Source of the DNA: Crocinitomicaceae bacterium
GTDB taxonomy: Bacteria > Bacteroidota > Bacteroidia > Flavobacteriales_D > Crocinitomicaceae
Assembly (NCBI GenBank): GCA_022447665.1
Contig: JAKVAQ010000039.1
Location: forward strand, 1 to 44,576
Direction of reading: 5' to 3'
Length of the DNA stretch: 44,576 bases
Shown: positions 2,356 through 3,539 of the stretch, one piece after another
Layout: every line of letters begins with the position of its first letter
How positions within the stretch are numbered: position 1 is the stretch's first letter
Position numbers and translations under genes: made by a program
Notes under the pieces: generated by a model
What the model saw: the letters and a program-made list of their open reading frames with translations, nothing else
The model's database searches: none
Told to the model about the DNA's origin: nothing

Positions 2356-2428
2356 GACAAGGTGGCCGAATGGTTAAGGCGGTAGTCTGCAAAACTATTT
2401 ATTAAGGGTTCGAATCCCTTCCTTGTCT
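2356..2428 (+). tRNA. tRNA-Cys (anticodon GCA)
   Basis: Acceptor GACAAGG/CCTTGTC; U8 G9; anticodon arm gtagt-ctgcaaa-actat; T-arm aaggg-ttcgaat-ccctt; 73 nt. Confidence 0.7.
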
Positions 2429-2521
2429 CAGTGATCGATAGAATCATAAGCTCGCTTTGATTATAACGATCCAATCCGAGACTTGCAGGGATGGTAAAAC
2501 AATCCCTTCCTTGTCTCCAAT

Positions 2522-2600
2522 ATCGAGTAGTAGAGGAGTTCGGTTTATCTCGCCTCATTTGGGATGAGGAGCACGTAGGTTCAAATGCTTTGCATTCATG
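2522..2600 (+). pseudogene. tRNA-Pro-like pseudogene (5' two-thirds paralogous to tRNA-Pro at 2807-2882; 3' acceptor/T-stem lost)
   Basis: Aligns position by position with tRNA-Pro: D-arm gagg-agt..ggtttat-ctcg and anticodon arm cctca-tttggga-tgagg (TGG). The T-stem complement and 3' acceptor strand are absent. Confidence 0.4.
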
Positions 2601-2653
2601 AACACAACTAAAGATAGACATGAAGTGAACTAAATCCTACCTATTCGACAACT

Positions 2654-2736
2654 GGAAGTGTTGAGCAATTGGCTGGCTCGCCAGACTGTAAATCTGGTCT
2701 CTTCGGAGCATGTAGGTTCGAGTCCTACCACTTCCA
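2654..2736 (+). tRNA. tRNA-Tyr (anticodon GTA), type II
   Basis: Acceptor GGAAGTG/CACTTCC; D-stem gagc/gctc; anticodon arm ccaga-ctgtaaa-tctgg; variable arm ctc-ttcg-gag; T-arm gtagg-ttcgagt-cctac; discriminator A. Confidence 0.7.
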
Positions 2737-2806
2737 CTAAAGACATCAGTGATGAAGATGTTTTCGACTGTCTCTCGAAGACGTTGACAAAACTGATGTC
2801 GGACAT

Positions 2807-2882
2807 CTGGTAATAGAGGAGTCAGGTTTATCTCGCTTCACCTGGAATGAAGAGCACGCAAGTTCGAATCTTGCTTACCAGA
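2807..2882 (+). tRNA. tRNA-Pro (anticodon TGG)
   Basis: Acceptor CTGGTAA/TTACCAG (C1-G72 with A73, as in bacterial tRNA-Pro); D-stem gagg/tctc; anticodon arm cttca-cctggaa-tgaag; T-arm gcaag-ttcgaat-cttgc. Confidence 0.65.
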
Positions 2883-2968
2883 CAAAGAAACCAAAGCAAA
2901 TTAATTTGAGTTTGGTTCGAGCTGAGTTATGCAAGTTCGACAGTGTCAATCTTGCTTACCAGACAAAC

Positions 2969-3040
2969 GCTCTGTTAGTAAAATGGTTAATACGCCTCAC
3001 TTTCTATGAGGAATTAGGGGTTCGATTCCCCTACAGAGTA
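2969..3040 (+). tRNA. tRNA-Glu (anticodon TTC)
   Basis: Acceptor GCTCTGT/ACAGAGT (G1-U72 wobble); anticodon arm cctca-ctttcta-tgagg; T-arm agggg-ttcgatt-cccct. Position 37 is U, which is unusual. Confidence 0.55.
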
Positions 3041-3046
3041 CAACAT

Positions 3047-3117
3047 TGCCCTGTAGTGTAAAGGCAACACACAAGACTTTGATTCTTGGACTATTGGTTC
3101 GAATCCAGTCAGGGCAA
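3047..3117 (+). tRNA. tRNA-Gln (anticodon TTG)
   Basis: Acceptor TGCCCTG/CAGGGCA (U1-A72, as in bacterial tRNA-Gln); D-stem gtgt/acac; anticodon arm caaga-ctttgat-tcttg; T-arm attgg-ttcgaat-ccagt. Confidence 0.7.
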
Positions 3118-3187
3118 CTACTTGCAATGAGTGGATGAGAAGTTTATGCTGAGCGAAGTCGAAGTAAATCCAGTCAGGGCAACTTAT

Positions 3188-3261
3188 GCGGAGATGGCGG
3201 AATGGCAGACGCAGCTGTTTTAGAAGCAGTTTTTATGAGAGTTCGAATCTCTCTCTCCGTA
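3188..3261 (+). tRNA. tRNA-like, type I, anticodon TAG (Leu-like D-arm, no long variable arm); possibly a pseudogene
   Basis: Acceptor GCGGAGA/TCTCCGT (G1-U72); D-arm tggcggaatggcagacgc identical to the Leu-like gene at 4030-4137; anticodon arm gctgt-tttagaa-gcagt with G-U closing pairs; T-arm gagag-ttcgaat-ctctc. Confidence 0.35.
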
Positions 3262-3265
3262 CAAA

Positions 3266-3388
3266 GCCCCACTAGCCCAATTATTCATTGGGTTGCTAAT
3301 TCTCAAAGGAATTCATGAATCCTTTGGATTTGGCAGAGGCATGAGACTTAAAATCTCAACAGTCTAGGTTCGAATCCTAGGTGGGGTA
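3266..3388 (+). tRNA. aberrant tRNA-like gene (123 nt), anticodon TAA, with a roughly 48-nt insertion between the D-arm and anticodon arm
   Basis: 5' gccccac pairs with 3' gtggggt (G1-U72). The 3' part has a clean anticodon arm tgaga-cttaaaa-tctca and T-arm ctagg-ttcgaat-cctag. The D-loop lacks GG. The insert 3294-3341 contains the hairpin aaaggaattca/tgaatccttt. Confidence 0.25.
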
Positions 3389-3391
3389 TAC

Positions 3392-3464
3392 GGTGTTTTT
3401 AGTTTATGTGGTAAAATACCTCACTGTGAATGAGGAGAATAGGGTTCGAGCCCCGAAAACACCC
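3392..3464 (+). tRNA. tRNA-His (anticodon GTG); G-1 not encoded
   Basis: Acceptor GGTGTTT/AAACACC; anticodon arm cctca-ctgtgaa-tgagg; T-loop ttcgagc; discriminator C73; the nucleotide at -1 is C. Confidence 0.6.
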
Positions 3465-3539
3465 AAAGTATTATATAGTTTGAAGGGCGAGAAGTTTATC
3501 TCGAGCGGAGTCGAGAGAAGCCCCGAAAACACCCAATCA

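Follow-up and report, generated by a model that had tools for sequence, protein, structure and literature searches.

The window analyzed here, the whole 44,576-nucleotide (nt) stretch of contig JAKVAQ010000039.1 from a Crocinitomicaceae bacterium, carries on its + strand, from 2167 to about 4140, an array of transfer RNA (tRNA) genes in which the gene's own 3' end is exactly repeated downstream of the genes for tRNA-Cys, tRNA-Pro, tRNA-Gln, and tRNA-His. The repeats start at a fixed point of the T-loop, between G57 and A58, and many tRNA genes of sister arrays are interrupted at this same point. This variant of tRNA 3'-end repeats and of disrupted tRNA genes exposes a T-loop insertion hot spot in a 12- to 14-gene accessory (back-up) tRNA operon of an RNA-damage-response island. 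We put at about even the chance that each repeat pair goes back to one small insertion event in the T-loop, the downstream copy being the orphaned original 3' end of the gene.

Exact Duplications of tRNA 3' Ends

The four genes, the repeat pairs, and the modules formed by the spacer and the second copy are as follows, all on the + strand.

2356..2429, + strand: intact tRNA-Cys(GCA), found by ARAGORN and by Rfam (69.7 bits), containing copy 1 (2413–2429)
2413–2429 and 2501–2517, + strand: Cys pair, copies 1 and 2, 17/17 identical
2430..2519, + strand: Cys module, a 71-nt spacer and copy 2, with a long hairpin at 2433–2471; fold z = −3.2
2807..2883, + strand: intact tRNA-Pro(TGG), found by ARAGORN and Rfam, with copy 1 taken at its full extent (2858–2886)
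2867–2886 and 2948–2967, + strand: Pro pair, copies 1 and 2, 20/20 identical
2887..2967, + strand: Pro module, a hairpin-bearing spacer, a second T-arm (2931–2967), the acceptor 3' strand, and 4 trailing nt; fold z = −1.7
3047..3118, + strand: intact tRNA-Gln(TTG), found by ARAGORN and Rfam, containing copy 1 (3102–3119)
3102–3119 and 3167–3184, + strand: Gln pair, copies 1 and 2, 18/18 identical
3120..3184, + strand: Gln module, a stem-forming left part, the core GAGAAGTTTATGCTGAGCGAAGTCGAAGTA at 3137–3166, and copy 2; fold z = −2.1
3392..3464, + strand: intact tRNA-His(GTG), found by ARAGORN and Rfam, containing copy 1 (3449–3466)
3449–3466 and 3519–3536, + strand: His pair, copies 1 and 2, 18/18 identical
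3467..3536, + strand: His module, a spacer, the core GAGAAGTTTATCTCGAGCGGAGTCGAGAGA at 3489–3518, and copy 2; fold z = −2.6

The copies of a pair are 65–88 nt apart, with only 47–71 nt of DNA between them. Within the region 2100–4200, exact direct repeats of 17 nt or longer occur four times at a distance of 20–120 nt. In 300 first-order Markov simulations of this region, repeats of 15 nt or longer at the same spacing numbered 0 on average and those of 12 nt or longer 0.007, which places the repeats, already pointed out in an earlier note on this DNA, far beyond chance. Not one substitution separates the copies over a total of 73 nt, and the flanks on their left are unrelated to the tRNA. The extents given in that note hold for Cys and Gln, and the His repeat is one base longer. 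In the Pro gene, the T-stem together with the 5' half of the loop, GCAAGTTCGA (2858–2867), is present again at 2931–2940, and an extra block of 7–8 nt, CAGTGTC plus one ambiguous A (put at 7 nt in the note), splits the two repeated blocks at the same T-loop point as the other inserts.

All four first copies are preceded by GTTCG, which fixes the left boundary at G57|A58 of the T-loop. The right boundary varies and lies past the discriminator base by 1 nt in Cys, 4 nt in Pro, and 2 nt in both Gln and His. Bases that do not belong to the tRNA are thus duplicated as well, and the duplication arose, as had been argued, at the level of DNA. Each second copy stops just ahead of the next unit, as previously noticed, with a gap of 3–5 nt in the four pairs; the unit after Cys copy 2 is an interrupted tRNA-Pro gene (2523–2649) overlooked by ARAGORN. 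When either copy is deleted in silico together with the spacer, the same tRNA results for all four genes. The array sequence is identical in seven independently assembled contigs, obtained from several samples by several assemblers, and is therefore not an assembly artefact; these contigs offer no variation for comparison.

In the predicted folds of all four modules, copy 2, that is the 3' strand of the T-stem and the 3' strand of the acceptor, pairs with the spacer upstream of it; in Cys it pairs with GAGAC..AGGGA of its own spacer. The predicted shape resembles a minihelix, a hairpin whose T-like stem has an enlarged loop and whose acceptor 3' strand is paired in part, so that the description of these units as pseudo-tRNA-like stands. 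The T-loop of copy 2 is interrupted by 6–31 additional nt. Compared with shuffled spacers, the duplex of a spacer with its cognate copy is favored in Cys (p = 0.017), Pro (p = 0.04), and Gln (p = 0.005), and the His duplex is no better than shuffled spacers (p = 0.42). The spacers had been described as homologous to each other. This holds only for Gln and His, where 3137–3162 and 3489–3514 are identical at 22 of 26 positions (85%). The proposed likeness of the spacers to the D-arm of tRNA-Pro comes down to a 10-nt exact match, GTTTATCTCG, with an E-value of about 5, which is not significant. BLAST against all arrays yielded no source sequence for the four spacers.

Lineage-Specific Insertions in a Conserved tRNA Operon

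Homologous arrays are located upstream of the same slipin gene at no fewer than seven other loci, L013, L014, L016, L159, L160, L161, and, in reduced form, L009. The slipin homologs, 54–76% identical, led to Bacteroidota chromosomal contigs, and more distant slipin loci carry arrays too. The shared gene order is Ser, Ser, Cys, Tyr, Pro, (Glu), Gln, Leu-TAG, (Glu), Leu-TAA, (TTA-anticodon tRNA), His, Phe, and Arg. The sister arrays are flanked by genes for RlaP, RtcB, a PrfH-like RF-1 protein, and a TPR protein, and at several loci also by one for an RNA ligase (PF09414); across genomes, the tRNA order is conserved in synteny with RtcB, PrfH, RlaP, RNA ligase, and slipin.

Neighboring tRNAs are 3–8 nt apart in L161, the cleanest case, and in L014, L016, L013, and L160. 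At the positions that concern us, the gap measures 5–8 nt between Cys and Tyr in the relatives, 4–8 nt between Gln and Leu in L014, L016, and L160, and 3–5 nt between His and Phe in L013, L014, and L161. The 65- to 92-nt segments of spacer and copy in the window are therefore lineage-specific insertions. Among 104 tRNAs scanned in 15 loci, 3'-end duplicates were found only in the window, with one older case in L159. There, an intact tRNA-Ser(TGA) is followed by GTGGG, an insert with a GAGAAGT core, and CCCACTTCTTCC, a second copy that differs at 1 of 13 positions. The architecture is that of the window: intact tRNA, T-stem, core insert, and acceptor 3' strand. Within the arrays, the GAGAAGT core is restricted to the Gln and His modules of the window and to the DNA behind Ser-TGA in L159 and L160; L160 displays a perfect 11-base-pair (bp) hairpin (z = −5.2).

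Gain and loss of array units among relatives, which the earlier note had suggested looking for, is seen when the arrays are compared. Gene duplication is frequent, as illustrated by the two tRNA-Pro genes of the window and by a Trp-like gene derived from Arg in L160. In L009, the closest relative, the array is cut down to a chimeric Tyr-like gene (4567–4728) and an intact Arg gene. The Tyr-like gene has three inserts: one in the D-loop, one of the Phe type in the anticodon loop, and an 18-nt palindrome in place of part of the T-loop. After the L009 Arg gene, an RLIG1-like open reading frame (ORF) of 184 amino acids is inserted. A tRNA whose TTA anticodon would read UAA stop codons also belongs to some sister arrays. 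The gene is intact in L016 (2974–3047) and carries a 28-nt T-loop insert in L013 (about 3565–3665), where ARAGORN calls the gene Lys(TTT) once the insert is removed in silico.

A Recurrent Insertion Site in the T-Loop

The best-defined inserts at G57|A58 in the relatives form a 28-nt family, ACTYYGAG..CGATC..CGNAGGTA, present in Cys and Phe of L016, Ser-GCT of L014, and, in L013, Leu-TAG and the TTA-anticodon-type tRNA; a further tRNA with such an insert is located on another contig of the L013 assembly. In split alignments, the break falls 15–16 nt before the 3' end and the extra sequence is exactly 28 nt long, and orthologs free of the insert exist. Other inserts occur at or near the same point: an 18-nt palindrome, TCCCGATAGCTWTCGGGA, in L009 and L013, and a hairpin of roughly 48 nt in the Pro-like gene of the window and in L014 Pro. 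Anticodon-loop inserts of 48–51 nt interrupt Phe and Arg of the window, the Tyr-like gene of L009, Ser-TGA of L014 and L016, and Tyr of L160. In silico deletion of the insert restored a tRNA recognized by ARAGORN in 10 of 11 cases.

The duplicated segments of the window are linked to these simple inserts by sequence and by position. The segments that precede copy 2 in Gln, ..CTGAGCGAAGTCGAAGTA|AATCC, and in His, ..CTCGAGCGGAGTCGAGAGA|AGCCC, resemble the 3' part of the 28-nt family (..CCGAAGGTA|ATC), and in both modules they abut the exon exactly where this family does. The duplicated segments are thus inserted relative to the relatives, at a breakpoint common with simple inserts, and with a Gln/His core resembling a known insert family.

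The T-loop inserts of the relatives fold as a hairpin within an enlarged loop, flanked by 5–6 unpaired nt. Compensatory change is seen in insert hairpins (GTGA/TCAC vs. GCGCAG/CTGCGC). In the interrupted L016 Phe gene, acceptor pairing is kept by a double change from A6-T67 to G6-C67. Signs of decay are present in other interrupted genes: G19A and a G7.A66 mismatch in L016 Cys, broken acceptor and T-stems in L161 Gln, and a shortened T-loop in L014 Glu. T-loops also act as recombination junctions in the population of the window, as indicated by L004 and L006, two short contigs from sister samples. They equal the window from the T-loop of Ser(GCT) onward (about 2328), and their upstream part holds a different Ser-like 5' half with an extra hairpin, GGAAGCAATGCTTCC; L004/L006 is a strain variant or recombinant with its junction exactly at the T-loop.

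A degenerate pattern of the 28-nt insert returned mostly chance matches from 185,579 species genomes. Four matches came after TTC(G/A)A; three of them, in a single assembly (L018, L067), have a T-loop context, and the fourth (L098) looks like chance. A stricter pattern found nothing in the Joint Genome Institute (JGI) metagenome collection, which omits the JGI contigs L014 and L016 that carry the family.

Four further genes of the window array are themselves interrupted, each with an insert whose removal restores a tRNA, and all were missed or truncated by default ARAGORN and Rfam searches.

2523..2649, + strand: tRNA-Pro(TGG)-like gene with a hairpin insert of 45–48 nt in the T-loop (about 2587–2634); ARAGORN calls tRNA-Pro after removal
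3266..3388, + strand: tRNA-Leu(TAA) gene with a 49-nt insert of the same class in the D-loop (about 3280–3331), located by split alignment to L014 Leu; fold z = −2.9
3540..3662, + strand: tRNA-Phe(GAA) gene interrupted in the anticodon loop by a 49-nt insert (3578–3626), found in ARAGORN intron mode
3668..3788, + strand: tRNA-Arg(TCG) gene with a 48-nt insert (about 3701–3748) at the 5' edge of the anticodon loop, found in ARAGORN intron mode and by split alignment

The insert family of the Pro-like gene is present in L014 Pro and missing from L016 Pro, and its stem shows compensatory change (TTCATG/CATGAA vs. TTCACG/CGTGA). The Phe insert recurs (31 nt, 97%) in a different gene body, the Tyr-like gene of L009, and the L009 ortholog of Arg (4734–4806) has no insert. 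The Leu and Arg inserts have in common a 24-nt stretch with 83% identity that includes TTCATGAA. For Phe, Arg, and Leu-TAA, the window array contains no uninterrupted version.

A Possible Origin of the Repeat Pairs

The insertion event, which is the best supported of the explanations considered and to which we give about an even chance of underlying each pair, could have proceeded as follows. The loops of array tRNAs, above all the T-loop at G57|A58, would repeatedly gain hairpin-forming inserts of 18–51 nt, with a breakpoint in these accessory genes that appears fixed at GGTTCG|AATCC. An insertion into the T-loop would first have split the tRNA gene. The 3' piece would then have been re-supplied beside the 5' body, either via break repair or through a one-sided recombination with an uninterrupted copy, anchored in the gene body and combining homology at one end with an illegitimate join at the other. 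Selection may have retained the result for the working tRNA that it restored. Copy 1 would thereby have become continuous with the gene body in a normal, presumably working tRNA, and copy 2 would have stayed at the 3' junction of the insert, 47–71 nt further on and before the next tRNA, at the former end of the gene. We regard copy 2 and the insert as a remnant that is probably inert, and we infer both the order of events and the enzymology. A fixed left boundary with a variable right one fits an existing insertion junction plus one illegitimate join.

Several observations weigh against this history. The doubling of the 3' piece is a step without a demonstrated mechanism, and no donor was identified. 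The 28-nt inserts common in the relatives show no duplication, which is therefore not a regular property of insertion here. The Cys and Pro spacers match nothing in BLAST searches against all arrays and belong to no recognizable insert family. The absence of any substitution over 73 nt points either to a recent event or to maintenance by gene conversion or selection, and the latter would speak against an inert remnant. The complementarity of spacer and copy 2, together with the 11-bp hairpin of L160, hints at selection for structure. Finally, intermediate relatives are absent from the databases, the nearest being a 76% slipin homolog whose array lacks these genes, and the order of events can for this reason not be read from extant sequences.

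Alternative Explanations

Each pair could instead derive from the tandem duplication of a whole gene by unequal crossing-over or slippage. The second gene would later have been crippled by a T-loop insert and by internal deletion of the D-arm as well as the anticodon arm, and short-patch conversion unable to cross the insert would have kept the 3' ends alike. We regard this as unlikely, even though gene duplication is common in these arrays and each module starts 3–5 nt past the first gene, like a tandem unit. By eye, the modules also consist of an acceptor 5' strand, a T-arm, and an acceptor 3' strand; the Pro module reads CTGAGTTAT|GCAAGTTCGA..AATCTTGC|TTACCAGAC against CTGGTAAT..GCAAGTTCGAATCTTGC TTACCAGAC in the tRNA. 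However, the left parts look like degenerate acceptor 5' strands by eye only. In a control alignment, they scored no higher against the 5' region of their own parent than against other tRNAs, and the parent was never the top match. Since this control shows no excess, we claim no homology of the left parts to the parent and do not retain an internally deleted tandem copy as the leading model. A multistep history would moreover be needed four times, 17–20 nt is short for homologous conversion, and 0 differences over 73 nt stand against roughly a quarter of the left-side positions differing. The origin by unequal crossing-over and decay of units put forward in the earlier note is therefore weakly supported: units do vary among relatives, but identity is confined to 17–29 nt between unrelated flanks, which does not match array units generated by unequal crossing-over.

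A second alternative gives the segments a function as RNA. Copy 1 and the spacer might be a T-loop intervening sequence that repair enzymes remove or bypass, or the minihelix modules might work in trans and provide decoys or spare 3' parts where toxins have cut the T-loop or acceptor end of a tRNA. The constant link of the arrays to RtcB, the PrfH-like RF-1 protein, RlaP, and the PF09414 RNA ligase in relatives would suit such a role, as would the Tpt1/KptA, Macro, NADAR, and NUDIX genes of the window. Inserts are confined to loops and their exact removal gives back the cloverleaf; insert hairpins show compensatory changes and L016 Phe the A6-T67 to G6-C67 replacement; and the modules fold better than shuffled sequence, with a GAGAAGT core that recurs in L159 and L160. 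Yet no bulge-helix-bulge motif, ribozyme, or intron family was found, no splicing endonuclease was seen near the array, and the interrupted L016 Cys, L161 Gln, and L014 Glu genes have decayed. Modules are missing from most arrays, the presence of copy 1 makes splicing needless, and the window has no ligase gene beside the array. A functional RNA is, on balance, quite improbable. More specifically, the loop inserts and the four segments of copy 1 plus spacer could be intervening sequences or spare parts that are cut and rejoined by RtcB, RNA ligase, RlaP, and Tpt1; such protein-dependent processing of interrupted tRNAs seems to us very improbable. If it were true, bacterial Tpt1 and RtcB would gain a natural tRNA substrate, and the minihelix modules would be functional partners in the repair of toxin-cut tRNAs.

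Direct repeats of tRNA 3' ends flank the elements integrated by P4-type tyrosine integrases at T-loop-class attachment (att) sites. The four pairs share this classic geometry, with a repeat of 17–20 bp that runs from the T-loop to a few bases past the end of the gene and an upstream copy that completes an intact tRNA, in segments missing from relatives. They could accordingly be taken for attL/attR-type cores of integrase recombination, as the earlier note had proposed. An element with its recombinase is nevertheless lacking: the 47–71 nt between the repeats is too little for one, four times over in adjacent genes of one operon, and no integrase or recombinase domain was detected in the annotated genes of the 44.6-kilobase (kb) window. 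The T-loop of copy 2 is disrupted by 6–31 extra nt, which is unexpected for attR, and sister arrays bear simple repeat-free inserts of 18–48 nt at the same point. We consider this explanation very unlikely indeed.

Other mechanisms were rejected. A transposon or miniature inverted-repeat transposable element with target-site duplication does not account for lengths of 17, 20, 18, and 18 nt or for the relatedness of only the Gln and His fillers. Nor do the data support reverse-transcription template switching at modified bases, casposon- or Cas1-type staggered integration, integron attC-like sites, or single-strand insertion of the IS200/IS605 type: no reverse transcriptase, Cas1, IntI, or TnpA gene was seen, and the duplication length varies.

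Leader and Other Conserved Elements of the Array

Upstream of the array, a 29-codon ORF, MSYSFLQPEQERFSFYSELCKTVKEYSME, is located at 2009–2098, followed by an intrinsic terminator at 2126–2152 that ends 14 nt before the first tRNA (2167). The first 19 codons after the ATG all specify amino acids of array tRNAs (p = 9e-7), and 23 of the 28 residues in total are of the array type, where the baseline is 0.48 (p = 2e-4). Each of the seven arrays checked has a small ORF with a high share of array-type residues (0.61–0.83) that ends 56–71 nt before the first tRNA and is followed by a terminator. Judged by its sequence, the leader with its terminator looks like a his/trp-style attenuator, through which a scarcity of these tRNAs would turn on the back-up set.

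A second conserved stretch, at 1802–1897 in the window, lies about 270 nt upstream of the array and has equivalents in the leaders of L009, L013, and L014. It encodes ..QL(R/G)DRQL(I/K/R)K.. in several loci and could be a peptide or an RNA motif. Between tRNA-Tyr and tRNA-Pro, the region 2742–2800 forms a long hairpin with an invariant apical CTGTCTC. This hairpin is also found in L013, L014, L016, L159, L160, and L161, with stem sequences that differ completely by locus. It may serve as a conserved element for processing or binding.

A conserved tRNA-like unit of about 170 nt (3978–4140) separates the array from the slipin gene and has equivalents in L009 (5573–5745), L013 (4502–4681), L014 (4531–4707), L159 (5499–5679), and L161 (4637–4814). 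It comprises in order a T-arm, a 7-bp hairpin, a class-II tRNA body with a long variable arm and, in the window, a TAG anticodon loop, and a second T-arm. The hairpin covaries by locus (TTGTCGT/ACGACAA, CAGGACT/AGTCCTG, and CTGTGC/GCACAG). Its 3' strand doubles as the acceptor 5' strand of the body, which puts the matching acceptor 3' strand upstream of the body. Rfam gives only partial tRNA matches to this unit, sub-threshold or borderline, with 23–33 bits against a cut-off of 29.

Genomic Context

The window is a chromosomal RNA-repair and nicotinamide adenine dinucleotide (NAD) conflict island of Crocinitomicaceae-type Bacteroidota, and not a phage. The slipin gene adjoining the array is annotated in a Crocinitomicaceae metagenome-assembled genome. 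The genes of the window include HEPN_AbiU2, slipin/Band_7, DMP19, NUDIX, NADAR, Macro, DUF4291, Tpt1/KptA, a 2OG-Fe(II) oxygenase, a metallophosphoesterase, NAMPT, PRPP synthase, and SUKH-type immunity proteins. The cluster devoted to RNA repair, NAD, and ADP-ribose spans 4406–16870 and 20208–24406 and includes a nucleoside deoxyribosyltransferase-like gene; SUKH/SMI1 immunity genes and NADase-related genes come after it. Unlike its relatives, the window contains no RtcB or RNA ligase gene beside the array.

A phage origin was rejected. Except for single tRNAs, no similarity to 50,697 phage records was detected, and of the ten largest ORFs, nine lack a PHROG hit. The array of Cellulophaga phage phi4:1 shares part of the tRNA order but is devoid of 3'-end repeats. 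Scans of viral contigs with the spacer core, the Phe insert motif, and the slipin protein, used as a query for related loci, gave no matches.

Relation to Known Systems

Bacterial ribosomal RNA (rRNA) genes can contain intervening sequences, extra hairpins that are excised by RNase III. The inserts described here resemble them as hairpins inserted into a loop of a structural RNA and by their patchy presence among strains. They differ in that the target is a tRNA, for which excision of the insert and function of a fragmented molecule are only hypothetical.

Disrupted tRNA genes are known from archaea, where short, enzymatically spliced introns occupy noncanonical positions and "intron transposition" has been described in Thermoproteales (PMC4033280). 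Like these introns, the inserts of the arrays are short (18–51 nt), are found in D-, anticodon, and T-loops, are related across tRNAs and positions, vary in presence, and leave a tRNA upon removal. Here, in contrast, the host is a bacterium and some of the genes are decayed. The T-loop insert junctions have no bulge-helix-bulge, no two 3-nt bulges 4 bp apart being found, and no splicing endonuclease (EndA) was seen among the annotated genes of the window and the contig flanks. The duplication of the 3' exon has no archaeal counterpart. Among known features, such introns come nearest to the inserts and integrase att cores to the repeats; the locus matches both in description but lacks a defining trait of each, the bulge-helix-bulge motif and the element with its integrase, respectively. 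Bacterial tRNA genes are said to be uniform, with only group I or II introns at 37/38 (PMC4033280). In view of this statement, the loop inserts of the bacterial arrays appear undescribed in the literature searched. They do not qualify as group I or II introns or as small ribozymes: they are 18–71 nt long, as opposed to at least about 200 nt for group I introns, and at the E-value threshold Rfam detects only tRNA families in the window array and six relatives.

The array belongs to the same general kind as the cyanobacterial L-arrays, studied in Anabaena, which share their regulation with rtcB and are induced by translational stress (PMC8421152). In both cases, an extra tRNA operon located by RtcB-type repair genes contains some pseudogenes and is horizontally mobile or plastic. 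The present arrays differ by a shorter, 12- to 14-gene set, by their Bacteroidota hosts, and by a control that looks like a leader-peptide attenuator rather than promoter repeats. The L-array study mentions neither loop inserts nor 3'-end duplications (PMC8421152).

Significance

A conserved bacterial tRNA operon thus collects short hairpin inserts at a fixed T-loop breakpoint, G57|A58, to which one lineage has added exact duplications of the 3' exon. A 17- to 20-bp repeat of a tRNA 3' end is by itself no proof of an integrase att site, and programs that search for islands or prophages can be misled by it. The locus offers a compact system to study how accessory tRNA arrays evolve and whether the adjoining repair genes act on interrupted tRNAs. 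The putative leader attenuator is maybe the more valuable lead, as it suggests that the back-up tRNAs are induced when exactly those tRNAs are short.

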